From an uncultured Acidimicrobiia bacterium (GTDB taxonomy: Bacteria > Acidobacteriota > Terriglobia > Versatilivoradales > Versatilivoraceae), in contig CAWBAT010000003.1 in NCBI GenBank assembly GCA_963786955.1, positions 96,001 through 160,000 of the forward strand: a DNA stretch of 64,000 bases, given 5' to 3'. The translations under genes and the position numbers were made by a program. Of this stretch, positions 3,817 through 39,281 are shown in pieces; within the stretch, counting starts at the first letter, position 1, and every line of letters begins with the position of its first letter. Under the pieces are notes generated by a model, which was not told where the DNA came from, ran no database searches, and worked only from the letters and a program-made list of their open reading frames with translations.

Positions 3817-5211
3817 GTGGCCGAACGCAAGCTCACGAATCACGATATAAATCCCGAGATATTTAAAACCATCATCGAGCCATTCAAAATCAAGACGGTC
3901 GAACCCATTCGTTGGACATCCCAGAATGAGCGCGAGACGTTGCTTCTCCGGGCTCACCATAACTTGTTTCTGCTTCCGGCGGATGCCATTCTCATTGATC
4001 TCTTGACTGATTCAGGCACGGCCGCCATGAGCACGCGACAATGGTCTGCCATGATGGTAGGCGATGAGAGTTATGCTGGGAGCCACAGTTTTGAACACTT
4101 TCGCCAGACAGTTCAGAATATTTTTGGTTTTTCACATGTCATTCCCAACCCATCAAGGCCGGGCTGCTGAGCGCATCCTTTTTACAGTAATGTGCAAGAA
4201 AGGGGATATCGTTCCGAACAACACTCATTTTGACACCACTCGGGCCAACATTGAGTTTGTTGGCGCTGAAGCCCTCGACCTGATAATCCCGGAAGGGACG
4301 CGACCCGGCTTATCTCCACCCTTTCAAGGGGAACATGGACATTGGCAAGTTAGAGCAACTCATCGACCGGGTTGGAGCCGCTCGGATTCCCCTCGTCATG
4401 TTGACGATCACGAATAATTCGGGTGGTGGTCAGCCTGTTTCGTTGGAAAATATGCGCGCCGTTAAGGCCATCTGTCGGCGTCATTCCATTCCGCTTTATT
4501 TTGACGCTTGCCGTTTTGCGGAAAATTCCTATTTCATCAAACTGCGGGAACAGGGGTATGAGAACAAGACACCCCGAGAAATTGCGCGTGAGATGTTCTC
4601 CCTCGGGGACGGCTGCACCATGTCGGCTAAGAAAGATGGACTCGCAAATATTGGGGGATTTCTTTGCACCAACGATGACGGTCTCGCGCAGCAGGAGGAG
4701 AATCTACTGATCCTGACGGAAGGGTACCCCACTTACGGCGGTTTGGCAGGGCGCGATCTCGAGGCCGTTGCGGTCGGACTTGAAGAAGCCCTCGAAGAGG
4801 ATTACTTAAAGTATCGAATCGTCTCCACAGCCTATTTGGGCAGCCACATTGCGGAACGAGGAGTGCCAATCGTTCAGCCCCCGGAGGGCATGCGATCTAC
4901 ATTGATGCCCGGGCCTTCTTGCCTCACATCCCCCCGGAAAATTTCCCCGGGGTGGCCCTCGCCAATAAGCTCTATCTGGTGGCGTGGGATCCGTTCCGTT
5001 GAAATCGGGTCCCTCATGTTTGGGCAACATGCGAGAATGGATTTGGTGACGGCTCGCGATCCCCCGCCGAGTCTATACGCAAAGTCATATGGACTACGTG
5101 ATCGAGGCTATTTTGAAAGTATGGGAGAAGCGAGATGAAATCCGCGGGCTAAGACTTACTTACGAAGCGCCATTTCTCCGGCATTTTACGGCCCGGCTGG
5201 AGCTTCTGTAG
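3817..5211 (+). CDS. tnaA: Tryptophanase (PLP beta-eliminating lyase), frameshifted
   Basis: [35 protein letters not shown] lysine motif MSAKKD, RSVEIGS (TnaA-like rather than TPL SMERG), C-terminal LRHFTARL, stop at 5211. Confidence 0.85.
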
Positions 5212-5312
5212 TCATGCGGGGCGCATTCAGGCATCCACTTTGGGAGGGGCGAAGCAGTCCTTCAGCTCGGGGGATGGTACCGCCCCACTCCATCGAGTAA
5301 AAAGGAGGATTT

Positions 5313-6164
5313 ATGAAGGGAAGTGCGGAAAGCGAAATTAGAAACGTCACTGATTTGTGTGAACCCGCCCACCAGTTCCAAAAGAATAGGGCTATCTTTC
5401 CCGATCGCTACTCTTTCTTTTTTGATTGTCGAGTGCTGATCCATGCCGCTTACGGCCAAGAATCCAGTTTGTCACAGCCGGGGATCAAATTGTCGGAGCA
5501 ACAAATAATTGAAAAGCTGGAGAGCCTCGGAGGCCGTATTTTCAAGGAGTCAGGACGTGTTGTTGACGTGAACATGGACGAACCAAAATTGAGGACAAGG
5601 ACTTGTCTCTCATTGCTTCGCTCGCAGACGTGACGGATCTCTCCTTGGAACAAACCCAGATGGGTGACTCTGGGAATCGCTATCTCGAAAGCCTCAAAAA
5701 ACTCGAATGGCTGAATTTGTACGGTACGCAAGTGACTGATGCCGGAATGAAGGTGTTGCAAGGATTCAATAACCTCCAGCATCTGCCCATCGGTAGGACA
5801 AAGGTGACGGACGTCGGGATTGGCGGAGTTGGGCAAAATGTCGCAACTCAATTATCTTGGACTTCGTGGCGATAACGTGTCTGATAGCGGGGTGAAATAA
5901 TTGGGAAACTTAACAAATCTCACCGGACTCCACCTTGGCGAAACGAAGATCACTGACAACGGTCTGGTCTATTTGCAGACCTTGACCAAGCTTAAGAAAC
6001 TCTGGTTAAACAATACCTTCATATCCGATGAAGGATTAGCCCACCTGGCCACGCTCAAGAATCTCGAGCAACTTCATATTTACGAAACGCAAGTTACGGA
6101 AGAAGGGTACAGGCAACTTCATTCGGAATTGCCTGAATGTCTGATCATTTATCGTGTGGAGTAA
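5313..6164 (+). CDS. Leucine-rich repeat protein, probably secreted (frameshifted)
   Basis: Repeated 24-aa units such as LKKLEWLNLYGTQVTDAGM, LTGLHLGETKITDNGL and LEQLHIYETQVTEEG. Confidence 0.8.
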
Positions 6165-9771: not shown

Positions 9772-10817
9772 CTCCTTATTCCCTTTAGAGCCTGGTTCTT
9801 CCAGATTCCCTCAATGATGTCTGATTTGGCTTTCCCCCATCCTCCAAATTCTTCGATGGAACAGAGATCGGGTATATTTCCGAAATCGGATCGCTCTTCA
9901 TTCAAGCAGTCATTGATACTTCGAAAGCCATAATTGACAAAGATCCGTTGAGCCTGATCACTCCACAAAAATGTGACGAAGGCATCCACAAGACCACGTC
10001 CCTCCGGGGGGATGTTTTTGTCTAATAAAACCAAGGTGTTCTCACATAAAATAGATGTTTTCGGATAGATAATCTCACCCCGCAAAATGCCTTTGGAACG
10101 ATCGAAGAGAACTTCTTGCTCGTCGGTGACCAACACATCACCAAAACCGTTTTCAAACATGGTTCGAGCCGCACGAGCTGAAGAAGCGCGAGCGACAACG
10201 TTGTTCCAAATGCCCGAGAGCATGTCAGCTGCGGCTGGCGAATTTCCCGAGTTAAGAGCCAGGGCAGAGCCGTATTCGGCCACAATCGCCCAGTTGGCCC
10301 CTCCCGAAGTCGAGGGATCGGGATGAATGAGTCGTATTCCGGGACGGGCCAGGTCTGCAAAATCCTGAACTCCTTTGGGATTTCCGGGCCGAACGAGCAA
10401 AACAATCGGAGTACGATTGAGAACCCCTCGATGCGGCAGGCGATGCCAACTCTGATCTTCAATCAAATGCGAGGCACTGAGTCTCTGGGCATCCAGTTGG
10501 AGGGAAAGCAAAGCCATTTCAGCTGGCACACCCAGCAGAAGCTGATTCGTGATTGTGCCGGATCCAGCGAAGGAGCTGATTATCTCGAGTCGTTCGCCGG
10601 ATTTCATGAACCAGAGATTCTCGAAGGCCGGAAAAGCGACTTGCTTCATCACCCGCTCTAGAATACTGCTGCCATAAAAAATGAGAGTCTTGGGCCGCGT
10701 TTCCCGCAGGCGGAAGGGTAACCAGGGCCAAAGGGCATAGATAAAGAGCATCCCCAGAAGTACACCAGTGATGGATCTCAGGAGGAAACGACCCAGCATC
10801 TTGCCGGTGATGACCAT
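9768..10817 (-). CDS. sbp: Sulfate-binding protein (Sbp/CysP family), N-terminally anchored
   Basis: VRPGNPKGVQDFADL, PDPSTSGGANW and GFGDVLV match Sbp family motifs. Overlaps the permease start. Confidence 0.75.
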   Translation of the reverse strand: MVITGKMLGRFLLRSITGVLLGMLFIYALWPWLPFRLRETRPKTLIFYGSSILERVMKQVAFPAFENLWFMKSGERLEIISSFAGSGTITNQLLLGVPAEMALLSLQLDAQRLSASHLIEDQSWHRLPHRGVLNRTPIVLLVRPGNPKGVQDFADLARPGIRLIHPDPSTSGGANWAIVAEYGSALALNSGNSPAAADMLSGIWNNVVARASSARAARTMFENGFGDVLVTDEQEVLFDRSKGILRGEIIYPKTSILCENTLVLLDKNIPPEGRGLVDAFVTFLWSDQAQRIFVNYGFRSINDCLNEERSDFGNIPDLCSIEEFGGWGKAKSDIIEGIWKNQALKGIRR

Positions 10818-10900
10818 TTTAGTCCCATTCTTCTTGTCTTATTCCAGATGTGATCCGAAGTCGTGCTTGAGCCATCGAGCAGATAAGGCGTCACTTACGA

Positions 10901-10916
10901 TGCAAGCAATGGACCA
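10901..10916 (-). promoter_or_regulatory. Putative sigma54 promoter of the sulfate ABC operon
   Basis: Minus strand TGGTCCATTGCTTGCA (GG-N10-GC with TTGCA -12 box), ~85 nt upstream of the sbp start. Confidence 0.5.
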
Positions 10917-11338
10917 TTAATATACTTATTTAGCTGAGGTCATTGCTCTACTCAAGTACTTATAAAACATGATTTTACAAGAACTAGGGAGTGTGGGAGA
11001 GGCGAGGTCCCTGGAGAGGTCGTGAGATGAGGTAGCAAAAATTACACATGTCCAGGGGGTTGGGAAAAGATTTGTACTGTTAAAACCATTTGCCAGTGTA
11101 GGCACTTTCACTATCCAGTCTAATATTTCCCCTGAGTCCGTAGAGAATCGTCGTAGGCCAAGAGGCTGCCCTGAGAAAAAGTGTATGGACGCTAATTTGG
11201 GAGGAAGTCATCATCTATCGATAATCCCTGTGATCCTGAAGAGAGTCGATGTATTCTCTCCATTGCACAGACAGAAGGAGTCTCACGAACGAGAAAGTTA
11301 CAGTCTTAATTCAATGAACCGCCGTTAGGGAGGAAATC

Positions 11339-11809
11339 ATGATTGTGGGTGAGCTGAAGCAATGGAAGAACATTAGTGGATTGGCTGGATTGGAAGGAGC
11401 TTTCGAGTTCTTGGAGAAAAATCAAAACCAGGAATTACCCCTAGGAAGATATCCGATCGATGGGGACGACATCTATGCCATCATCGTTCGTGCGCCATCA
11501 CGGCCCGATGAGGCGGGGCAATTTGAATCTCACCGGAAATACATAGACGTGCAGTATCTGGATGCGGGTATGGAGAGCATTGGCTACGCACCCATCGCCA
11601 ACTTAAATGTAGCGACTCCCTATCTGGAATCCAAAGATGTTGAATTCTATGAACTCCCCGAAAATTACGAAAAACTCTCCATGTATCCGGGCCGATTTGC
11701 AGTTTTTTTCCCAGGCGAAGGTCATCTCCCGAACTGCCACTTGGGGGGAGAACACCCGTTGAGCAAAATTGTCGTCAAGATCCTATCCTCGTTGCACAGA
11801 AGAAGTTGA
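11339..11809 (+). CDS. YhcH/YjgK/YiaL (NanQ-like) family protein
   Basis: FESHRKYIDVQY and FAVFFPGEGHLP motifs. GGAGG RBS. Confidence 0.9.
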   Translation: MIVGELKQWKNISGLAGLEGAFEFLEKNQNQELPLGRYPIDGDDIYAIIVRAPSRPDEAGQFESHRKYIDVQYLDAGMESIGYAPIANLNVATPYLESKDVEFYELPENYEKLSMYPGRFAVFFPGEGHLPNCHLGGEHPLSKIVVKILSSLHRRS

Positions 11810-11822
11810 ATCATTATTCAGT

Positions 11823-12036
11823 GTAGGGGCAAAGCATTTGCAACTGCCGCGTGATGGTCTCCAACATTTCTGAGGCGAATGCTTTGCCCTTAGAATCAGA
11901 CCCTGCCGATTTCACAAGGGCGAAGGATCAAGCGTGTGGCAAACGACAATCACGAGGGCGACGAAGGATCAAGCGCGTCGCAAACGTCAATCACGAGGGC
12001 GAAGCATCCGTCAGTTGACGGATGCTTCGCCCCTAC
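11823..12036. repeat. REP/REPIN cluster, left flank of RAYT
   Basis: Starts GTAGGGGCAAAGCATT and ends GGGCGAAGCATCCGTCAGTTGACGGATGCTTCGCCCCTAC. Internal ~40-nt unit is tandemly duplicated. Confidence 0.85.
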
Positions 12037-12056
12037 AAGCGGTTTGTTTGAAACAA

Positions 12057-12629
12057 ATGCCATTTGATCCTGAAAAAGACCATCGGCGTTCGATTCGCCT
12101 GCGAAGTTATGACTATTCTCAGCCTGGCGCCTATTTTGTGACGATCTGCACGCATCAGCGTAAGTGCCTATTGGGCTGTGAAGAAGACGGAAAGATCATC
12201 CTTTCAGCCTTTGGTTACCTAGTAGAAAGAACCTGGCAGGCTCTGCCAAAACATTTTCCAGGGATTGAATTGGATGCCTATGTGATCATGCCGAATCACA
12301 TTCACGGGATTATCAGGCGTAGGGGCGAAGCATTTTCGGCTGAAACATCCAGAATTACATCCATCTCGTGGGCCAATGCTTCGCCCCCTTCTCCATTTCT
12401 TGGCACGAAGCCAAATTCATTGGCAGCCATCATCCAGAATTTCAAATCGGTTTCGACGCGGAAAATGAATCAGAGGACCAACAGTACTGGAACCCAATGG
12501 TGGCAACGTAATTATTACGAACAAGTGATTCGGAATGAGAAGTCACTGTTGAAGGCTCAACAATACATATCCGAAAACCCGCTACGGTGGGCATTTGACA
12601 AGGAAAATCCCACCAAAATAGTTCTGTAG
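12057..12629 (+). mobile_element. rayT: REP-associated tyrosine transposase (RAYT, Y1/HUH family)
   Basis: RRSIRLRSYDYSQPGAYFVTICT, HUH motif MPNHIHG, WQRNYYEQVIR, catalytic Tyr in YISENP. Flanked by GTAG REPs. Likely start is ATG 12057. Confidence 0.9.
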
Positions 12630-12798
12630 GGGTGAAGTATTCGCAACTTCAGCCTGATGGTCTCCAATATTTTTGAGGCGAATGCTTTGCCCCTGGGATC
12701 AGACCCTGCAAATTTCATAAGGGCGAAGGATCTGCTGTGTGGCAAACGCCAATCATAAGGGCGAAGCATCCGTTAGCTGACGGATGCTTCGCCCCTAC
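12626..12798. repeat. REP/REPIN cluster, right flank of RAYT (direct repeat of the left flank)
   Basis: GTAGGGGTGAAGTATTCGC...TGATGGTCTCCAA...GAGGCGAATGCTTTGCCC...GGGCGAAGCATCCGTTAGCTGACGGATGCTTCGCCCCTAC, colinear with 11823-12036. Confidence 0.85.
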
Positions 12799-12843
12799 AA
12801 GACGAATTATTCTGTGATTGTGGCGTTTGCAATCTGCGAGACT

Positions 12844-14413
12844 TCATCCGGAGTTGGAATGCCCCCGGTGACGGAATAACGAATCTTGTTTTTCCTCTGG
12901 GCCATTAAGCCGGATTTCATAACGCTGGCAATAGTTGGAAGATTGCTCGACTAAAAGTTTAATCCAAGTCCGCCAAGTCATCTGACGAAAGTAAATCCCA
13001 CGAAACAAAAGACGGGCGACAAAATGCATTAGTTGCGGGCCAAAGGTCTTTTGATTATCCAGCAGCCATTTTTGTGCCCGACGAAATGCCGCAGGATCGT
13101 AGCAATGAGTCCACGCCTGCCGTATTTCCTCTTCCGCTGCATCAGCAGAAATATTTTTGGGAATGTAAGCAGACTTAAAGGCCTGAAAGTCAAGCCAGTG
13201 TTCCGGCCGAGTCAGACGCCCTTCTTTTTGCAAACGATAGTACAAAGGGGTAGCGGGGTAAGGGGTGAGAATTCCGAATACCGGCAATCCGGGCGGCCAG
13301 GTATCGATCTTACGGTAAGTTTGCTCGGAAACACCTCGCCGGTCGCCCTCCATTCCAAAAATAAACGAGGTAATTGCATACAGATGGTACTTGGCGAGCA
13401 AGTTTAGAATCTCCTGGTATTCTTCCGGTTTATTAAATTCCTTGTGCGCCACCTTGAGGCTTTCCGGATCCATGGACTCCAGTCCCATGAATATCCAACG
13501 CCCGCCACTGGCCGCGATCAATTGTACGAGTTCCTCATCTCGCAGGAGATTCATGCTGATCTGGGCGATCCAAGGCATGCAAGCATCCTGTTTGATCATC
13601 TCGCGTAGAAGAGACTTCGTCCGTTTACGATTAATGGCAAAGTTATCATCAATAAAAAAGACCATGGTCAAGGCATTCTTCTCTTTGGCCATGGCCTTCA
13701 AGTTCAGTAATTCTTGAATGACATTGTCATTATCCCGAAATCGAATCTCGTCTCCGAAGAAGCCGGTCACGGTGCAAAACTCGCACCCATAGGGGCAGCC
13801 TCGGCCAGATTCCATGGGGATAATATAAACGTTTTCGTAGCCGATTCCGATTGCCTTCAATACTCTCCTGGCCGTTCTCGGGACAAAACGCATCATATCA
13901 AAAAGAGTCAAATTAGCTTTGTCCCAGGCCATGGCCGGATAATTTTTAAGAGTCGGTTTTACGTCTTTTCCTTCGTGTTTTGCGGGCTCATAGACTTTCT
14001 GCAATCGTCCGAGAGAGGCATCTCGAACCACTAACGGCCAAGTATCGTCTGCTTCACCGAGGACGACGGTATCGGCATATTGTGGATGTCCTGTCAGTCC
14101 CAACGGTTCGTCCGGGACTTCGGTCACGTGAGGGCCTCCCATCACGATCGGTACAGTTGGTGGCACAGCGAATGGCATCTGCCATGCGATAGGCTTTTTG
14201 CGCCATCCGCGTCATGAAGCCCATGCCGACTAACTCAATCCTTTCGCGAATAATAAATTCGACCAGCTCTTGCTCTGTATAGTGTTGTGCGTTGCCATCG
14301 ATGATGGTAACGCGATGCTCACTTGGCGTGAGTCGCTTCAGCACAAAGGGCCAAAGTTGTGGGACGAAGTTGTTGGTGATCTGGTTGTCAGGAACATACA
14401 AGAGGATGTGCAT
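12844..14413 (-). CDS. B12-binding domain radical SAM protein (frameshift near 14180)
   Basis: N-terminal B12-binding domain (VMGGPHVT, VLGEAD), RGCPYGCEFC, FFIDDNF, GLES. Confidence 0.85.
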
Positions 14414-26253: not shown

Positions 26254-27890
26254 ATGTCTCTACTGAATGTTCAGGTCTCAGTTTCCGCCACCCCTCTCAA
26301 TCTGATCCCCTATTCGAAAAAGTTTCTTTCGAAATCAATCCAGGTGACCATATTGGGCTTGTCGGTCCCAATGGTTCTGGCAAGTCAACTTTGCTTCGCC
26401 TGCTTACTGGCGAGTTGGAACCGAACACCGGTTCCATTGTCCGCCGCCATCCACTCCGTGTGAGCTATGTACCGCAGGAGAGCAATGCGCCGGACGAACT
26501 GTCGCTTGGGGATTATCTGCATGATGGCCAACCCAGAGCTTGGAGCGATTTATCGACAGATCCGTGCCCTGGAGTCTCAATTGGATAGCAGTGAACAGGC
26601 CAGCCGGTACGCTGAACTCTTAAATACATACCAAGAGCGAGATGGATTCCGGCTGCAGGCAGAAGCAGAAAAATCATGGCGGGACTTGGATTCAGCCCCA
26701 GGAGAAGAAACTTGCCAATGGGCCTGCTGTCCAGTGGTCAACGCGCTCGGTCCGAGTCGTCAGGCTATTGCTCTCCCCGACAGACCTCTTCTGATCGATG
26801 AGCCTAGCAACCATCTTGATATTGCAGCTAGAGAATGGCTGGAGGAATATCTGTCCCGTCTGAATGCAGCCTATCTGGCGGTATCACATGACCGGTTTTT
26901 TTTAAACGAAGCGACAAGTCGGATACTTGAAATATGCCATTGAAGCTTTGCCGTGTATGAAGGGAATTATGAGTTCTATCTTGAACAGCGTGATCTTCGG
27001 GAAAGACAAGCTTGGGAGCAGTATCAAGCCCAACAGCGACGGTCGGAGACCGCCGACTATTCGGCTCGACGGCGCATGGGTCTGGCAAATAAAGTGGCCA
27101 GAACTCCCCGGGGCATTCGATCCGGCCATGACTTCTATAGAAGCCAAGGCTGCCAAGGTTGCTCGCACAGCCCGTATTCTCCGCGAGAGAGTTCAGTCGA
27201 GAGCCCATCGCCAAAAAACCCTGGCAAGAAGATCCCATTCCTACACTCCATTTTGCTAATGTGGTTGCTTCGTCTGACGTTGCACTCCGGGTCGAGGGCC
27301 TGAGCAAGGCCTATCCTGGGAAAGAGCTGTTTCGGGATTTGAGTTTTACCGTCCGTTCAGGAGAACGGTGGGCGATTCTCGGATCAAACGGCTCAGGGAA
27401 GACCACGCTGCTGCGTGTTTTACTGGGACAAATGCCTGCCGATGCAGGAACCGTTCAGATTGGATCGAAAGTAAGAATTGGTTATTACGCGCAAGAGGGC
27501 GAAAATCTGGATCCTGACAGGTCGCCTGTTGAGCTCGGTCTTGCAGTCAACCCAGACGAAACTTGGGTTCGTACGATCCTCGGTTGTCTGCGTTTGCGCG
27601 GGGAAAAGGCGAATGGTCCCGATACAAAACAATGAGTGCCGGAGAACGCGCCAAAGGTCGCCTTGGCGAGAATCCTCTTCAGCGGAGCCAATCTGCTATT
27701 TCTTGACGAGCCGACAAATCATCTCGACATCGATGCACGGGAAGCCGTCGAAGAGACGCTCTCGTACTATCCGGGCACTCTTCTCTTTGTTTCGCACGAT
27801 CGCTATTTCATCAAGACTCTGGCAGACGAGATTCTCGAACTTTCAACAATAGCAGGTGGGTCCGAACTCAACCCCCAATCGATGCTCTGA
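26254..27890 (+). CDS. ABC-F family ATPase (multiply frameshifted)
   Basis: Two NBDs (GPNGSGKS; GSNGSGKT), DEPSNHLD and DEPTNHLD, VSHDR twice, YEGNY linker start, no TM segments. Confidence 0.85.
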
Positions 27891-28032: not shown

Positions 28033-29533
28033 ATGAATGCACCCGCTATTCAAATTGATCCCCGTGTCAGTTCAACTCTGGCGAAGCAGGGAAGATTGTT
28101 GATCAACAATCGCTGGGAAGAAGCTGCTTCAGGAAAGTCTTTCCCAACCTACAATCCCGCCACTGGAGAAGTTCTAGCCCGAGTGGCCGAGGGAGATAAA
28201 GATGACGTTAATCAGGCCGTGAAGGCAGCACGGTCTGCCTTCGAAAAGGGGCCGTGGCCCAAGATGACACCTTCAGAGAGGGGTCGTTTGATTTGGAAAC
28301 TGGGCGATCTCATTAGAAGTTCACCTCGAAGAATTTGCAGAGCTCGAAAGTCTCGACAATGGCAAACCGCTGACGGTAGCTCGAGTAGCAGACGTCCCGC
28401 TAGCGGCGGATTTGTTCCGCTATATGGCCGGCTGGGCCACGAAGATTGAAGGGCACACGATTCCGATCTCGGTTCCCTATACTCCGGGAGCCAGCTACCA
28501 CGCTTATACCCTGCGCGAACCGGTGGGTGTGGTTGCCCAGATCATCCCATGGAATTTCCCGTTGCTTATGGCAGCCTGGAAACTAGGTCCAGCCTTAGCG
28601 ACTGGTTGCACAGTTATCCTGAAACCAGCAGAACAAACTCCTCTGACGGCATTACGACTCGGGGAAGTGATTCTTGAGGCGGGATTTCCCGAAGGAGTCG
28701 TGAATATTGTTACGGGCTTCGGAAATGCAGGGGCTGCTCTCGCCAGCCACCCGGATGTGGATAAGGTGGCCTTTACCGGCTCAACAGAGGTAGGCAAGCT
28801 CATCGTCCAAGCTGCAGCCGGAAATCTTAAGAAAGTCTCTCTGGAACTGGGTGGAAAATCTCCCAACATTATTCTAAAAGATGCCGACATCGAAACTGCC
28901 GTGCAGGGTGCCGCCAGCGCCATTTTCTTCAATCATGGCCAGTGCTGCTGCGCCGGCTCACGTCTCTACGTGGAAAGCAGCATTTTTGACAAGGTGGTCG
29001 ATGGCGTGGCCGAGCTCGCCAAGAAGATCAAACTAGGATCAGGATTTGACCCAGCCACCGAAATGGGACCCCTGGTATCCACTGAGCAACTCGACCGGGT
29101 GTGTGGTTATCTGGAGGCGGGTATTGCTGAGGGAGCCAGCGCGGTGGCGGGAGGACACAAAATTCCGGGTAAGGGATACTTTGTCGAGCCGACGGTTCTG
29201 GTGAATACAAACGAAAGAATGAAAGTGGTCGAGGAAGAAATTTTTGGCCCCGTCGTCGCAGCGCTTCCTTTCAAGGATCTTGATGAAGTCATGCCCAGGG
29301 CCAACGACTCCGCATATGGTCTGGCTGCAGGAATCTGGACATCGGATATTACGAAAGCGCATCACTTGGCCTCCAAGTTGCGTGCAGGAACGGTTTGGAT
29401 CAACTGCTATAACATTTTCGACGCCGCATTGCCTTTCGGTGGCTACAAACAATCGGGATGGGGAAGAGAGATGGGGCATGATGTGCTCGAGATGTATACG
29501 GAAGTCAAAGCCATCTGCGCCAGAATAGGCTAG
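28033..29533 (+). CDS. NAD-dependent aldehyde dehydrogenase (one frameshift near 28315)
   Basis: [46 protein letters not shown]. Confidence 0.93.
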
Positions 29534-29935: not shown

Positions 29936-30517
29936 ATGAAGAAGACAAGTATTTTAGCAGTGTTAATTTTTATTTTCGCGAGTGTTTCCTCTTGGATTCA
30001 GGCAGGGGACTCAGCAAAAGGAGGCAATACTCCATTGATCTATGATTTTGTTCTTAAAAGCATCGATGGCAAAGAGGTGAAATTGGATCAATACCGCGGG
30101 AAAACTCTTCTGCTGGTGAACGTTGCCAGCCAGTGTGGCTACACTCCACAGTATGAAGGCCTGCAGAAGATCTACCTGAAGTATAAAGATCAGGGATTCG
30201 TTGTTCTCGGGTTCCCGGCCAATAATTTTGGCGCTCAGGAGCCAGGCACTGATCAAGAGATCAAAACTTTTTGTTCTACTCGCTATCAAGTGACGTTTCC
30301 CATGTTTTCCAAGATTTCCGTGAAAGGTCCTGACAAAAATCCACTTTATAAGTTTTTGACGGAAGAGAAAACCGACCCTAAATTTGCGGGAGAGATTAAG
30401 TGGAACTTTAGCAAGTTCTTGGTTGATAAGAATGGCAATATCGTTGCCCGCTTCGACTCTAAAGATACTCCCGAAAGTGAAAAAGTTGTCGAGGCCATTG
30501 AGCAGGCCGTGAAATAA
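29936..30517 (+). CDS. gpx: Glutathione peroxidase family protein (Cys type, signal peptide)
   Basis: NVASQCGYT, LGFPANNFGAQEPG, KWNFSKFLV. Confidence 0.92.
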   Translation: MKKTSILAVLIFIFASVSSWIQAGDSAKGGNTPLIYDFVLKSIDGKEVKLDQYRGKTLLLVNVASQCGYTPQYEGLQKIYLKYKDQGFVVLGFPANNFGAQEPGTDQEIKTFCSTRYQVTFPMFSKISVKGPDKNPLYKFLTEEKTDPKFAGEIKWNFSKFLVDKNGNIVARFDSKDTPESEKVVEAIEQAVK

Positions 30518-30545: not shown

Positions 30546-31097
30546 TTGCTGATGGTGACTGAGAAGGTCGTGGATACAAAAAACCCAGAATCGCCGGGTT
30601 CCGGGAGTTCTAAGCTCCATTCTTTCGAGTCCTACGAACGAGCTTCAGGCGCAAGTTATAGTTGGACCGTTCGCGCTCGCGGAAGTGATCGGGCGGAAGC
30701 CGCAGCCTACGCCCGTAACCAGGCATTCACTGTCTGCGGGCAGGCCAGTTTCAGAGCATCGGACCCCCATCCGAGCGCGGTTGAATATTTGCTAGGCGCC
30801 CTCGGTGGGGATCTTCTCACAGGATTTGCTGTGAGTGCCGCCCGACGAGCAATCCAGCTGCATGACACGGAAGTCAGCATTTCGGGTTGCCTCAACAATC
30901 CGCTGGTGTTTTTGGGCGTGATTGGGGAAAAAGGTCATCCTGGCTTCGAGACAATCACTGGAACTCTGTATGTCAGCGCAGATGCCGAAGCTTCGACCTT
31001 ACGGCAGATCTGGGAAGAGGTGCTGGCACAATCTCCCCTTGTCAACACATTGCGGCGAGCCGTAAATCTTGCTTTGGAGCTTCAGATCACCGTCTAA
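30546..31097 (+). CDS. OsmC-like protein lacking the catalytic cysteines
   Basis: PSAVEYLLGALGGDL and SPLVNTL occupy the two Cys-motif positions of the OsmC/Ohr fold. Confidence 0.7.
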   Translation: MLMVTEKVVDTKNPESPGSGSSKLHSFESYERASGASYSWTVRARGSDRAEAAAYARNQAFTVCGQASFRASDPHPSAVEYLLGALGGDLLTGFAVSAARRAIQLHDTEVSISGCLNNPLVFLGVIGEKGHPGFETITGTLYVSADAEASTLRQIWEEVLAQSPLVNTLRRAVNLALELQITV

Positions 31098-31338
31098 ATG
31101 TTTTTGATTTTGGATTCACCGCCAAGTAGAGTGTGGCAACCGTCCCATCCTCAATGAACCTACCCTTATCCTCTCGTCGAAATTCATAGGATGTGAACGA
31201 TAGGAGAATCTTTGGTGGAATGGACATTGTTCCGTCCATTTGTGGGAGGGAGGACTATGAGGACTGTCAAGTTAAGCGTGCATGGTAGCGACTCATCATA
31301 AATGAATAATATAAATCCCAAATTGCTCGAGGAGAATT

Positions 31339-32487
31339 ATGTACCGACTCAACGAAAAGCAGACCGTTTTGATCGACCAGATCCGTCGTCTCGCTGACGA
31401 AACGATTGCCCCCAATGCGGCGGAAGTCGATGAAAAGGGCCGTTTCCCGCGGCAGAGTATAGAAGCCCTGGCCAAGCACGGTTTCCTGGGATTAACGATT
31501 CCCCAGGAGTATGGCGGTCTGGGTGAAGGGATGCGCACGTCCTGTGCGGTTCTCGAAGAAGTTGCCCGGCGCTGCGCTTCGACGGGGATGGTCTATTTGA
31601 TGCACTTGTGCGGCTGCGCTTGCTACACGGCCCATCCTAAAGGGCATGAGGAGACTTTGCGGCAGGCCGCGCGCGGGGAGCATCTCTCCACACTAGCGTG
31701 GAGCGAAAGAGGCTCGCGTAGCCATTTCTGGGCTCCGGTTAGCCAGGGCATCAAAAAGAATGGAAACATTCTCCTGCAGGCGCAAAAATCCTGGGTGACA
31801 TCGGCCGGAGAAGCAGATGGATATGTGGTCTCTACACGAATGCCCGGCAGCGAGCAAGCGAATGATACCATCCTTTATTTGGTGCGAAAGGGAGATGCCG
31901 GGGTGGCGGTAAGTGGTGTCTGGAACAGTCTGGGAATGCGAGGGAATGCGAGCGCGCCCATGGCTTTGGATCAGTGCGAGATTCCACTGGAACGGGCGTT
32001 GTGTGAGCCGAGTCAGGGTTTTCCCCGCATGCTTGAGATATTACCTTGGTTTAATCTGGGTAATGCCGCAATTTCGGTGGGGATTGCAGAGGCGGCCACG
32101 CAGACGGCCGCTGCCCATTTAATCGCAGCGAAATTGGAACATATGAACAGTCGTTTATCGGATTTGCCCAATCTCCGTGCCCGACTGGCTCAGATGAGGA
32201 TTGAAACAGACCGTGCCCGGGCCTATTTGCTGGCGACGCTGGATGCTCTAGAAGAGGGAGCTGCGAATGCGATGCTGTTGGTGCTCGGGTCCAAAGTGGC
32301 GGGCGCAGAGGCCGCTATCCGTGTCACAGATTGGGGAATGCAGACCTGCGGTGGCGCGGCTTTCAGTAAACACCTCAGTTTAGAGCGCAACTTCCGAGAT
32401 GCCCGAGCGTCCGGCGTCATGGCGCCAACCTCAGACGTCTTGCAGGAATTTATTGGACGGGCATTATGCGGCATGAACTTATTTTGA
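31339..32487 (+). CDS. Acyl-CoA dehydrogenase-fold flavoprotein
   Basis: IPQEYGGLG, LAWSERGS, KSWVTSA, LGMRGN, LERNFRDAR. Confidence 0.88.
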   Translation: MYRLNEKQTVLIDQIRRLADETIAPNAAEVDEKGRFPRQSIEALAKHGFLGLTIPQEYGGLGEGMRTSCAVLEEVARRCASTGMVYLMHLCGCACYTAHPKGHEETLRQAARGEHLSTLAWSERGSRSHFWAPVSQGIKKNGNILLQAQKSWVTSAGEADGYVVSTRMPGSEQANDTILYLVRKGDAGVAVSGVWNSLGMRGNASAPMALDQCEIPLERALCEPSQGFPRMLEILPWFNLGNAAISVGIAEAATQTAAAHLIAAKLEHMNSRLSDLPNLRARLAQMRIETDRARAYLLATLDALEEGAANAMLLVLGSKVAGAEAAIRVTDWGMQTCGGAAFSKHLSLERNFRDARASGVMAPTSDVLQEFIGRALCGMNLF

Positions 32488-32534
32488 CCTGAAACTGTCA
32501 ACACCGATACAAAGTACACTCAAGGAGAATTTGA

Positions 32535-33359
32535 ATGCCTTCCCCCATCCTGGTTGGAGCCGTCGTTTACGATCCCAAAGTGGTCGTGATCTGGGAGATC
32601 ATCAAGGATTTCTTTAAGTCCGAGGGCTGTCCCATGGATTCGGTTTTTTATTCGAACTATGAACTGCAAGTCGATGCTTTACTCGCCGGCCATATCCACA
32701 TCGCTTGGAACTCGCCACTAGCCTGGGTGGACGCGCAACGGCGCAATTCCGGGAACTGCCGGGCCATTGCTATGCGCGACACCGATCGCGATCGCATCAC
32801 CCATTGGGTTGTGCGGCAGCAAAGCGGCATTCAGCGGGTGGAAGACTTGCGCGGAAAGACGGTCGCGACGGGTGCCAAAGATTCCCCTCAGGCAACTTTG
32901 CTTCCTTTGCATCATTTAGCCACGGCGGGACTGAAACCTTATAAAAATGTTCAAGTAAGACGCTTTGACATGATGGTGGGGAAACACGGAGATCATGTTG
33001 GAGGCGAATTAGAGGCCTTGCGCTGCCTCCAAAGTGGTGACTGCGACGCTTGTGCTATCCTGGACCTGAACTGGCAGACGTGGCAGGCGGATGGGACGGC
33101 GAATCCCGAAACGCTCGTGTCCCTGGCGACGACAGAACCCTTCGACCACTGCAATTTCACTGTCAAAGACAGCTTTCCAGTCGAACGGGAAGCACATTGG
33201 ATCGAGGCGCTGTTCCGAATGAGCTACAACAATCCTGATCATCGCATGATGATGGATATGGAGGGGCTTAAGGCATGGTTGCCAGGGCGTACGAGTGGCT
33301 ATCGTGCTTTGACTGAGGCAGTGGCTCAACAACATTTTTTTGAAGATCTCGAGAAGTGA
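32535..33359 (+). CDS. PhnD/SsuA-type PBP2-fold protein without signal peptide
   Basis: GAVVYDPKV, HIAWNSPLAW, DLRGKTVATGAKDS, FDHCNF. No N-terminal hydrophobic signal. Confidence 0.75.
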   Translation: MPSPILVGAVVYDPKVVVIWEIIKDFFKSEGCPMDSVFYSNYELQVDALLAGHIHIAWNSPLAWVDAQRRNSGNCRAIAMRDTDRDRITHWVVRQQSGIQRVEDLRGKTVATGAKDSPQATLLPLHHLATAGLKPYKNVQVRRFDMMVGKHGDHVGGELEALRCLQSGDCDACAILDLNWQTWQADGTANPETLVSLATTEPFDHCNFTVKDSFPVEREAHWIEALFRMSYNNPDHRMMMDMEGLKAWLPGRTSGYRALTEAVAQQHFFEDLEK

Positions 33360-34564
33360 TTTCCCCACCGACTCCACCCAAAATAAATCTGACCAAACCG
33401 CTGCCTCTCTTCCCCGTGACCACTGTCGGTAGCTGGCCGCGTTCTCTTGAAGTTCTTCGCGCTCAACGGCGGAAACAACGCGGTTTGATTTCCGAGGCCG
33501 ACTTTGAACGGATCGCCACTGCCGCGATTCTTGAAGTACTGCGCCTGCAAGAAGAGGCTGGCGTCGACTTGGTAACCGACGGGGAACAGCGGCGTGACAG
33601 TTTTTATTCATTTGTGGCTGAAAAGTTGAACGGTGTGCGGCTGACCTCGCTGGCTGAAATGCTGGATTGGGTAGAAGACAAGGCCGGGTTTGAGCGTATC
33701 CTTCAAACACTAGATGTCCCCGCCTTCGCCATCAACAATCCGACGTGCACAGGACGCCTCGAACGACGGCTCCCTCTTGCTGTGAATGAGTTTCGGTTTT
33801 TGCGTCAACATACAGACCGCTTCATTAAGATTCCGCTTCCGGGCCCCTACCTGCTGACAAGGGCGATGTGGGTTAAAGAGGTGACTCGCCCCATTTACCC
33901 TACCAAAGAAGACCTTGCCGAAGACGTTGTGCGTCTCTTACGCGCGGAAGTCTGCGAGTTGCGCGACGCAGGTGCGGATTTCATTCAATTGGACGAACCG
34001 GTATTGACGGAATTGGTCTTTACCCAGGGGCAGACCCGAACGTTTATGTGCGCAGCCTTGGCGGCGCGGAAGGATCCGGCGGAGGAATTGGAATTTGCCG
34101 TCGATCTGATCAATCGAGTGGTTGAAGGATTGTCGGATGTGCGAATCGGTCTGCACATTTGCCGGGGGAATTGGAGTCAGCAGGAGGCCATTTTACTGAA
34201 AGGGTCTTATCATCCGCTGACTTCGTATCTTTCCCGGTTAAAGGTGAAGCAACTGGTTCTGGAATTTGCGACACCCCGGGCCGGTGAGCTCGCGGCTCTG
34301 CTAAGTTCGAAGGAAATTGCAGAAAATAAGGAGCTGGGGCTAGGTGTGACAAATCCCCGGTCCCTAGAAATCGAGTCCGTTGCAGCCATCGTTTCTCGTG
34401 TTGAAGAGGCGCTCAATTATCTGCCTGCCGAACGAATCTTCCTGAATCCTGATTGTGGTTTTGGCACCTTCTCTTCACGTCCAGTCAGTAATGTCGAAAT
34501 TGCTACCCGAAAGCTGGAGGTGATGGTAAAAGCTGCGACCATCTTGCGTGAGCGTTATGGTTAG
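33356..34564 (+). CDS. Cobalamin-independent methionine synthase II family (single-barrel MetE core)
   Basis: TTVGSWPR, TDGEQRR, IQLDEP; Zn ligands in LHICRGN, LEF and NPDCGF. Overlaps the previous gene (GTGA). Confidence 0.88.
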   Translation: MISPPTPPKINLTKPLPLFPVTTVGSWPRSLEVLRAQRRKQRGLISEADFERIATAAILEVLRLQEEAGVDLVTDGEQRRDSFYSFVAEKLNGVRLTSLAEMLDWVEDKAGFERILQTLDVPAFAINNPTCTGRLERRLPLAVNEFRFLRQHTDRFIKIPLPGPYLLTRAMWVKEVTRPIYPTKEDLAEDVVRLLRAEVCELRDAGADFIQLDEPVLTELVFTQGQTRTFMCAALAARKDPAEELEFAVDLINRVVEGLSDVRIGLHICRGNWSQQEAILLKGSYHPLTSYLSRLKVKQLVLEFATPRAGELAALLSSKEIAENKELGLGVTNPRSLEIESVAAIVSRVEEALNYLPAERIFLNPDCGFGTFSSRPVSNVEIATRKLEVMVKAATILRERYG

Positions 34565-37922: not shown

Positions 37923-38390
37923 TTAAACCTCGTTTTCGAGCTGTTCTTCGGCCTTTACAAACTCAGTTTCCAACCTGACTTGGGTCTTGATCGAGTTCGA
38001 AATTAGACAATTCTTCTCTGCTTTCTCAAGCAAATGGTGAGCTTTCTCCAGATCCTTACTGTGGCGAATAACCAGGTGTGGGCGCAGCATAATCTCTGTC
38101 ATTTGATACCCCGCGCCTTCTACTTTGTCGAGCTTTCCCGTGGCCTTGGAATCGAAGCTGACGAACTCGAGTTTAGACATTTGGGCAATGGCCAGGAATG
38201 TTGTCATGAAACAGGAATTGACTGAAGCGACGAAGTAGTGTTCGGGGGTCCATATTCCTTCATGTCCTTGAAATTCAGGCGGGGAAGCCACCTGGAGGGG
38301 CGTTAAACCGGGCGCTTCTAATTCCCCCATTTTTTGTTCGGTCCACTCCACTTCCGTTTCGTAAAAGTATGGCAATGTTGCGGTTCCCAT
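37923..38390 (-). CDS. OsmC family peroxiredoxin-like protein
   Basis: SPPEFQG..WTPEH..SCFMTTF and AEKNCLISNS. Both cysteines are present. Confidence 0.9.
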   Translation of the reverse strand: MGTATLPYFYETEVEWTEQKMGELEAPGLTPLQVASPPEFQGHEGIWTPEHYFVASVNSCFMTTFLAIAQMSKLEFVSFDSKATGKLDKVEGAGYQMTEIMLRPHLVIRHSKDLEKAHHLLEKAEKNCLISNSIKTQVRLETEFVKAEEQLENEV

Positions 38391-38651: not shown

Positions 38652-39281
38652 ATGAATGAATCCAATAGTCCAGGGCAGGAAGATCAGCTGGTGGCAAAAG
38701 CACGGTCTGGAGACCTCGAAAGCTTTGAAGCCCTTGTCAATCTGTACGCGAAACGCATTTTCCATATTGCTTACAAAATTGTTGAGTCTATCCACGATGC
38801 TGAAGATGTATTACAAGAAACCTTTCTTAAAGCTTTTGAGAACCTGCCCCAGTTTCGTGGGGAATCGAGCTTTTATACCTGGATCGTTCAAATTGCGGTG
38901 AATGGGGCGCTGCAGCGGGTAAAGAAGCGGCGGCTTCAAACAGTTTCCCTGGATGGACTGTACGGTGACGATGATGATTTCAGACCTGAAAGAATCGTGG
39001 CCTGGGATGACAATCCTGAAAAAATCTATTCCAGGAAAGAGACACAGCACATTCTTGAGGAGGCGATTGTTTCTCTCCCGATCCTCTATCGGACGGTGTT
39101 TCTTTTGAAGGACGTGGAAAACATGACGATGGCCAAGATTGCTAGGACCCTGGAGATCTCCCTGCCTGCGGCAAAATCGCGACTGATTCGGGCCCGGCTT
39201 GAACTCCGCGAAAAGTTGAGCCGGTACTTCCAGAAAAAAGGTGCCCCTGTCTATTCCGGAGCACATCCTCATGACCATTGA
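38652..39281 (+). CDS. ECF RNA polymerase sigma factor
   Basis: DAEDVLQETFLKA, FRGESSFYTW, region 4 IARTLEISLPAAKSRLIRAR. Confidence 0.92.
   Translation: MNESNSPGQEDQLVAKARSGDLESFEALVNLYAKRIFHIAYKIVESIHDAEDVLQETFLKAFENLPQFRGESSFYTWIVQIAVNGALQRVKKRRLQTVSLDGLYGDDDDFRPERIVAWDDNPEKIYSRKETQHILEEAIVSLPILYRTVFLLKDVENMTMAKIARTLEISLPAAKSRLIRARLELREKLSRYFQKKGAPVYSGAHPHDH

Follow-up and report, generated by a model that had tools for sequence, protein, structure and literature searches.

Among described proteins, the methionine synthases of the MetE type come closest to one component of the gene cassette reported here, and a mycobacterial-type protein pair comes closest to two others. Canonical MetE (TIGR01371; Thermotoga maritima structures 1xpg and 1xdj) combines a barrel bearing an HxC/Glu/Cys zinc site and a homocysteine site with an N-terminal, folate-supporting barrel. 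MesD, one of the core methionine synthases (MesA-D), consists of a single MetE-type barrel, needs the non-corrinoid accessory protein MesX together with oxygen, and is found in aerobes alongside MetH, as set out by Price, Deutschbauer and Arkin (2021; PMC7857596). The Rv1679 (FadE16)/Rv1680 pair, for which NCBIfam models exist (NF049984 and NF049985), comprises a flavoprotein and a binding protein of the same types as those encoded here; in PMC8562490, Rv1680 is guessed, from its structure, to be a phosphonate transporter component, and the literature on Rv1679, Rv1680, moeX, MesX and DUF1852 offered no function beyond this guess. The cassette in question lies on the plus strand at 30546..34564 of a 64,000-nucleotide stretch (hereafter, the window) of contig CAWBAT010000003.1 from an uncultured bacterium, and it encodes an OsmC-like protein, a flavoprotein of the acyl-CoA dehydrogenase (ACAD) fold, a PhnD-fold protein and a MetE-fold zinc enzyme. 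An earlier note on this DNA had proposed that each of the four departs from its family norm and that together they constitute an undescribed pathway. All the departures it stated were confirmed, and the four genes are predicted to be one conserved, self-contained cytoplasmic unit, whose zinc enzyme carries an invariant cysteine that is replaced in some lineages by predicted selenocysteine (Sec). No function has been described for the cassette, or for its clade of MetE-like proteins, in the literature searched.

The locus set was gathered by similarity to the PhnD-like gene, which has 7871 homologues among database proteins at E ≤ 1e-10 (the best 120 being 68-92% identical), thousands of them in metagenomes. 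Counting one genome per species, at least 576 relatives were confirmed, of which the best 80 were kept; most of these loci stem from metagenome bins. A locus was considered well flanked if its sequence extended 3.5 kb or more in both directions; there were 53 such loci besides L034, which is near-identical to the window (92-97%) and was left out of the count. The neighbourhood analysis suggested in the earlier note, for conserved ACAD, MetE and OsmC partners, gave a clear result: all four genes lie inside 4.5 kb in 46 of the 53 loci, ACAD being present in 52, the OsmC-like gene in 50 and the MetE-like gene in 48. The genes are thus grouped far more often than chance would allow. Among the 46 complete loci, the gene order takes at least five forms. 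That of the window, OsmC-ACAD-PhnD-MetE, is found in 33; ACAD-PhnD-MetE-OsmC in seven, namely L068, which is labelled Gemmatimonadales, and every well-flanked Bacillota locus (six in number: L071-L074, L076 and L077); OsmC-PhnD-MetE-ACAD in four, with the ACAD gene reversed in one; and ACAD-OsmC-PhnD-MetE in two. Module-bearing loci carry more than 10 phylum labels, archaea among them, the record titles naming Acidobacteriota, Chloroflexota, Armatimonadota, Planctomycetota, Verrucomicrobiota, Gemmatimonadota, Latescibacterota, Nitrospinota, Eisenbacteria, a delta-proteobacterium, Bacillota and Nitrososphaerota archaea. When the open reading frames (ORFs) of 79 loci were clustered all against all, four families recurred (in 77, 68, 67 and 62 loci), and the next most frequent family, shadow ORFs disregarded, occurred in 6. 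This clustering revealed no recurrent transporter (permease or ATPase), flavin reductase, electron-transfer flavoprotein or CoA ligase across the 79 loci. The flanks of 12 diverse loci were unlike one another and held no conserved partner, and an Rfam scan for riboswitches upstream of the cassette in seven Bacillota loci returned 0 matches.

The MetE-like zinc enzyme (33356..34564, plus strand) has 402 residues and a GTG start codon, its gene overlapping that of the PhnD-like protein by GTGA, as had been stated before. It matches Pfam Meth_synt_2 (PF01717) with 119 bits and is a single barrel because positions 1-323 of the 324-position profile are covered within the 402 residues. Aligned with T. 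maritima MetE, it retains the serine in IGSxP, the glutamate in GE, the aspartate in DEP, both residues of the HxC motif, the following Glu and the final Cys. The zinc ligands, described as intact in the earlier note, are indeed in place: His267 and Cys269 (His-x-Cys, 34154..34162), Glu303 (34262..34264) and Cys367 in NPDCG (34454..34456), all on the plus strand. Together with S26, E77 and D213, these residues are invariant or nearly so in 32 relatives (the HxC pair strictly), and the same seven positions are listed as zinc- and homocysteine-binding residues of E. coli MetE in PMC7857596. The predicted structure (mean predicted local distance difference test score, pLDDT, 86.8) superimposes on T. 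maritima MetE with a template-modelling (TM) score of 0.75 and on PDB entries 3rpd and 1ypx with a TMt of 0.82; the phmmer match to 3rpd, the MesD structure, scores 64.6 bits. Thus, the protein shares the single barrel and the zinc- and homocysteine-binding residues of the core methionine synthases, MesD included, but all nine NCBIfam methionine-synthase models remain under their cut-offs, the best being PRK04326 (203.5 versus 406 bits) and the canonical MetE model TIGR01371 reaching 119.5 versus 929.95 bits. Compared with canonical MetE it has half the length and lacks the N-terminal barrel; compared with MesD, its partners (ACAD-fold, PhnD-fold and OsmC-like) are unrelated to MesX. In the 32 relatives, seven Arg residues are invariant as well, which suggests an anionic second ligand. 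Taken together, the alignments support a predicted thiol-activating zinc enzyme in which the homocysteine-binding residues have been kept.

What sets this enzyme apart from both canonical MetE and MesD is an insertion of 12 residues (relative to T. maritima MetE) after the DEP strand. It carries an FMC motif, present in 53 of 53 aligned relatives, whose cysteine is C232 (codon TGC, 34049..34051, plus strand). In the model, C232 falls after strand 5 (residues 209-213) and before helix 5, and residues 231-233 have a pLDDT below 50, as would be expected of a mobile loop at the catalytic face of the barrel. The motif was located by pattern search in 56 of the loci; codon 232 was TGC in 43, TGT in nine and TGA in four (L031, L052, L057 and L064), the latter being loci of Verrucomicrobiota/Planctomycetota type. 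When the TGA of L031 is read as Sec, the frame runs on through HVCRGNW, LEYATPRAG and NPDCGF to a normal end. Each of the four TGA forms contains a hairpin (ACCCGC, a CGUGAY loop and GCGGGU) with a core stem that starts 13 nucleotides after the UGA; no such hairpin was present in the four Cys forms folded, namely the window gene and three relatives of the same clade. We take this hairpin to agree with bacterial selenocysteine insertion sequence (SECIS) elements. The selA gene was found above cut-off in all four genomes with a TGA form and also in the window's own genome. An in-frame TGA at a Cys position with conserved sequence behind it, a SECIS-type hairpin and the Sec machinery thus coincide in these four loci, so that position 232 is predicted to be Sec there, as opposed to Cys in the window. 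Where Cys and Sec alternate, the residue normally serves as a reactive nucleophile or in redox chemistry, and because C232 shows this alternation it is probably a reactive residue. No MetE-type family came up in full-text literature searches or in the main text of the prokaryotic-selenoprotein reviews PMC9312934 and PMC13188914; a selenocysteine form of a MetE-fold enzyme therefore appears not to have been listed so far, and the alternation would add such an enzyme to the predicted selenoproteins.

The ACAD-fold flavoprotein (31339..32487, plus strand; 382 residues) contains the N-terminal, middle and C-terminal domains of its fold (Pfam 85.9, 48.3 and 63.7 bits, respectively) but not the catalytic Glu of acyl-CoA dehydrogenases, which is located in the YEGT motif or on helix G. 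GVMAPT occupies residues 359-364, where VMAPT aligns with IYEGT of PDB 3pfd, and the alternative site on helix G reads ILPWFN (residues 234-239). In 64 family members neither site holds a conserved Glu, and the VMAPT motif is kept; the absence of a base at both positions, as read from the single sequence in the earlier note, is therefore a family trait. The best NCBIfam match is the Rv1679/FadE16 family (NF049984), with 428.1 bits below the cut-off of 600. The top matches include, with 150.8 bits, an ACAD-fold enzyme of sulfur metabolism, 3-sulfinopropanoyl-CoA desulfinase (NF042439), which we take to have the ACAD fold without the dehydrogenase base; the score is far under the cut-off of 600, and the cassette comes without a linked CoA ligase or transferase.

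The third protein (PhnD/PtxB fold; 32535..33359, plus strand; 274 residues) matches Pfam Phosphonate-bd with 107 bits, but reaches only 38.1 of the 261.1 bits required by the true PhnD model TIGR03431. Its best NCBIfam match, NF049985 (Rv1680-family, substrate-binding-protein-like), is also below cut-off (268.9 versus 400 bits). The closest folds to the model (mean pLDDT 94.7) are the oxyanion binders PhnD, PtxB, HtxB, ArrX and AioX at ∼15% identity. Because the first strand begins at residue 5 of the model, there is no room for a signal peptide. PhnD-type binding proteins of ABC transporters have an export signal and a linked permease or ATPase; this protein has neither, nor does a permease or ATPase recur in the 79 loci, as had been anticipated from the window. 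Both observations support the conclusion that it is not a transport component. Across 41 sequences the motifs WNSPLAW, MRDTD, KDSPQ, KHGDHxGGE and DHC are invariant, KDSPQ standing where the phosphonate binder PDB 7s6g has SESSTS. From the many invariant His, Asp and Cys residues (in KHGDHxGGE, MRDTD and DHC), the protein would seem to be an enzyme or to hold a metal site rather than to serve as a transport receptor. Complex prediction with the MetE-like protein returned a score of 0.00 in two runs, which is evidence neither for nor against an interaction.

The OsmC-like protein (30546..31097, plus strand) has 183 residues when counted from a TTG codon, an in-frame ATG being located at 30552, and matches Pfam OsmC with 36.4 bits (cut-off 27.5). 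OsmC/Ohr peroxiredoxins possess two catalytic cysteines. Alignment with a canonical OsmC protein encoded in the window places D89 and S163 at these positions, in agreement with the D and S reported earlier, and among 39 OsmC-like relatives the two sites are occupied by D/E/S and S/A, respectively. The canonical protein used for the alignment is an OsmC/Ohr-type peroxiredoxin with both Cys (37923-38390, minus strand; Pfam 62 bits), 3.4 kb downstream of the cassette.

Further hints at the chemistry come from loci in which the cassette is extended or altered. L031, L052, L062 and L064 encode three additional genes between the PhnD-like and MetE-like positions: a TusA-like gene (19-24 bits, under the Pfam cut-off of 28.6), a DsrE-family gene (45-54 bits; cut-off 22.7) and a gene in which a TusA-like domain (27.5-32.8 bits) is fused to a second OsmC-like domain. 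The OsmC-like half of this fusion shares 24-48% identity with the ordinary OsmC-like proteins from almost all of the remaining loci. Thus, domains of TusA/DsrE sulfur-relay proteins are encoded inside the cassette in these four loci, whereas the window cassette is without them; no link between the TusA/DsrE relay and a MetE-fold enzyme was found in the literature searched. Three of the four loci are also Sec forms, the exception being L062, whose cassette (9798-13275) looks decayed: it has no MetE-like gene, contains a kinase-like insertion, and carries a stop codon other than TGA at the invariant Glu of the TusA::OsmC protein. In a Paenibacillus-type genome (L086), a 429-residue protein with an N-terminal TusA domain (35.8 bits) is followed by an ACAD gene and a PhnD-like gene, the products of which are 37% and 42% identical, respectively, to the window proteins and keep the VMAPT, KHGD and HC motifs. 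L078 and L079 combine the same two genes with one for a 393-residue protein that has weak TusA and ferritin-like (DUF455, AurF) matches. The proteins of this sister cassette are predicted to be cytoplasmic, like those of the window, but its partner is a TusA-fused, diiron-like protein, as opposed to a MetE-like and an OsmC-like protein in the window. In two other loci a DJ-1/PfpI protein takes the place of the MetE-like gene (L026, 8897-9610; L017, 3421-4152). The ACAD/PhnD-like pair is therefore the constant core and the third enzyme is variable, and a TusA-like or OsmC-like element usually accompanies the pair. NCBI curated models exist only for the sister pair. Once the function of the cassette is solved, that of the sister cassettes with the same flavoprotein/binding-protein pair would probably become clear too.

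C232 with its Sec counterpart, the DsrE/TusA add-ons and the swapped third enzymes shift the picture towards the chemistry of S-S or Se-S bonds or of a sulfur relay. The reading tentatively favoured, and held with somewhat less than even confidence, is that the four proteins form one cytoplasmic system, which would act by thiol/selenol or sulfur-relay chemistry on a homocysteine-type substrate bound to zinc. The thiol or selenol of this substrate would sit on the zinc of the MetE-like enzyme. Cys/Sec232 would react with it directly, making or breaking an S-S or Se-S bond or passing on persulfide sulfur, which would differ from methyl transfer out of folate or cobalamin. Exchange at S-S or Se-S bonds, or persulfide transfer, is preferred because Cys alternates with Sec, because the predicted loop would form a lid over a homocysteine-type zinc site, and because TusA/DsrE-type genes are adjacent. 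The partner proteins would supply sulfur species or redox equivalents: the fixed ACAD/PhnD-like pair probably binds and processes a small anionic co-substrate containing sulfur (or selenium), and the Cys-less OsmC-like protein probably partners the MetE-like enzyme as an adaptor or a carrier, given that some lineages join the OsmC-like fold to a TusA-like domain. The product would most likely be a homocysteine or methionine-type amino acid, made or modified by the system. A bolder version, and a rather unlikely one, is that an unrecognised way of forming or rearranging the C-S (or C-Se) bond of homocysteine or methionine exists here, in which carriers of OsmC/TusA/DsrE type would hand sulfur to the MetE-fold Cys/Sec enzyme and the flavoprotein/binding-protein pair would feed in the sulfur. 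If true, the pair would be a general sulfur-donor module serving diiron-like and DJ-1 enzymes as well, in soil bacteria and ammonia-oxidising archaea. The cassette could reveal how aerobic soil organisms deal with homocysteine-type sulfur or selenium compounds. The pathway proposed in the earlier note, a flavin oxidation combined with thiol alkylation, is thus partly supported: the conserved cytoplasmic unit and its thiol-activating zinc enzyme stood, the oxidation and alkylation steps are conjectural, and no signal for methionine synthesis emerged from the genome-level comparisons given below.

Several points weigh against the favoured reading. The TusA matches are mostly below the Pfam cut-off (19-27.5 versus 28.6 bits), and the DsrE/TusA add-ons occur in just four of 79 loci, of which L062 is apparently decayed. 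The seven MetE residues would be equally expected of a true methionine synthase. The closest characterised relatives of the ACAD-fold protein act on CoA thioesters, and the proposed scheme has no CoA step. The selection of loci through the PhnD-like gene, with the best 80 of at least 576 relatives examined, may also have shaped the picture. Finally, the co-occurrence of the module with selD was dropped as support: 46 of 49 module genomes have it, which is unremarkable beside 163 of 201 genomes sampled from the window's phylum (three of them, G230, G328 and G205, are flagged as unpublished and enter the phylum tallies alone) and 94 of 136 genomes of a Paenibacillus-type family.

The main rival, itself unlikely, holds that the MetE-like enzyme methylates homocysteine as a methionine synthase of a fifth kind, independent of folate and cobalamin, whose partners would make or deliver the methyl donor in the way that MesD depends on MesX and oxygen. 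Conservation of all seven zinc- and homocysteine-binding residues and the nearest folds (MetE and the MesD structure 3rpd) argue for it, as does the distribution of canonical enzymes: the hosts are mostly aerobes whose sole canonical route is the cobalamin-dependent MetH, its homocysteine domain PF02574 being present in 44 of 47 module genomes and full-length MetE in four of 49. The N-terminal domain of canonical MetE (PF08267) occurs in seven of these 49, the four full-length proteins all belonging to Paenibacillaceae, and in four Armatimonadota genomes (G013, G020, G035 and G036) 652-residue proteins are the halves of a split MetH. However, canonical MetE is rare in the phylum with or without the module (nine of the 201 sampled genomes, compared with seven that have the PhnD-like gene), so its absence is uninformative, and no complementarity between MetH or MetE and the module was detected when 47-49 module genomes were compared with this background. 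A single genome, G018, has no MetH-type domain and no MetE-like gene other than that of the module, which would suit a methionine synthase, but it is a 10-Mb metagenome bin of unestimated completeness. Simple methyl transfer gives the invariant Cys/Sec no role, and neither the DsrE/TusA add-ons nor the use of the pair with diiron-like or DJ-1 enzymes fits the supply of a methyl donor. Methyl transfer through a methylated Cys/Sec was set aside on chemical grounds, most members having Cys, and the MetE fusion described for Phaeocystis (PMC10861871) has another architecture.

Compared with exchange or relay chemistry on a thiol, a pathway specific for selenium, handling selenohomocysteine or selenomethionine or passing selenium from carrier to carrier, either for supply or for detoxification, is improbable. 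It would account for the predicted Sec forms of the MetE-like enzyme, for the weak best NCBIfam matches to an OsmC-related (seleno)protein and a putative selenate-binding protein, and for the position of selD, which adjoins the module in L005 (∼4982-6025), L006 (2064-3065) and L036 (∼11525-12541). Yet, a selenoprotein form signals a reactive residue and not a selenium substrate, this adjacency concerns only 3 of 79 loci, the genome-wide frequency of selD stands against backgrounds of 81% and 69%, and no selD was found in the two module-bearing Nitrososphaerota genomes. In the phylum sample, all seven genomes with the PhnD-like gene also have selD; most selD genes of module-bearing genomes hold one in-frame TGA. 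Quite improbable, too, is a system for electrophile capture or repair, in which a reactive oxidised compound, formed or bound by the pair, would be quenched or converted by the variable third enzyme. The interchangeability of the third enzyme, Cys-dependent in two versions, would suit such a role, and the OsmC fold is otherwise that of hydroperoxide reductases; in addition, the window cassette follows a glutathione peroxidase gene (29936-30517) whose product has a signal-like N-terminus. This neighbour is not conserved, though, occurring among related loci only in L034, the OsmC-like protein has lost both catalytic Cys, and the retained homocysteine-binding residues indicate a specific amino-acid substrate. 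The automatic names in public records, such as phosphonate transport system substrate-binding protein and methionine synthase family (an Atlas look-up returned only clusters named methionine synthase), would make the four genes ordinary, unrelated neighbours: an acyl-CoA dehydrogenase, a binding protein for phosphonate uptake, a methionine synthase and a peroxiredoxin. This explanation is hardly credible, as it is contradicted by the co-occurrence in bacteria and archaea alike (46 of 53 loci), by the lack of a signal peptide, of a recurrent transporter, of the ACAD Glu and of the OsmC-like Cys, and by the fact that all curated cut-offs were missed. In line with this, none of the findings that could have spoken against the earlier proposal of a joint function materialised: the gene set recurs in other genomes, and it comes with neither a linked transporter nor a catalytic Glu. 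The cassette proteins are routinely misnamed as transporter subunit, fatty-acid enzyme, methionine synthase or peroxiredoxin.

Some observations concern the window's own genome and individual relatives of the locus. No full-length MetH was found in the window's genome. It encodes a 607-residue fusion of homocysteine S-methyltransferase and methylenetetrahydrofolate reductase (MTHFR) together with separate pterin-binding and B12-binding ORFs (L082, G000:C5; G000:C4:716445-721681), and, at L085 (G000:C4:832569-836522), a second, more distant MetE-like gene (360 residues; Meth_synt_2, 45 bits) that adjoins one for a 400-residue protein of the AIR-synthase family. L034, the record of which is labelled Acidimicrobiia, shares with the window most proteins at 87-97% identity over at least 9 kb, one hypothetical protein being 78% identical; several of its genes are shortened, probably through indel errors, and its label or binning may be wrong. 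The ACAD gene of L009 and the MetE-like gene of L048, both from long-read metagenome assemblies, are truncated, which probably reflects frameshift errors and not true loss.

Elsewhere in the window, an ORF for a sigma factor of the extracytoplasmic function (ECF) type is located at 38652-39281. Upstream of the cassette, an aldehyde dehydrogenase is split between the overlapping ORFs 28033-28449 and 28412-29533 (plus strand), which cover Pfam Aldedh positions 1-73 and 96-461, respectively; the split is a frameshift, due either to an assembly error or to a pseudogene. Overlapping ORFs at 26467-27852 (plus strand) contain pieces of what appears to be a single ABC-F type ATPase, the gene seemingly broken across frames; in the translations, these pieces comprise a LIDEPSNHLD stretch, a linker and a Walker A stretch ([11 protein letters not shown]).

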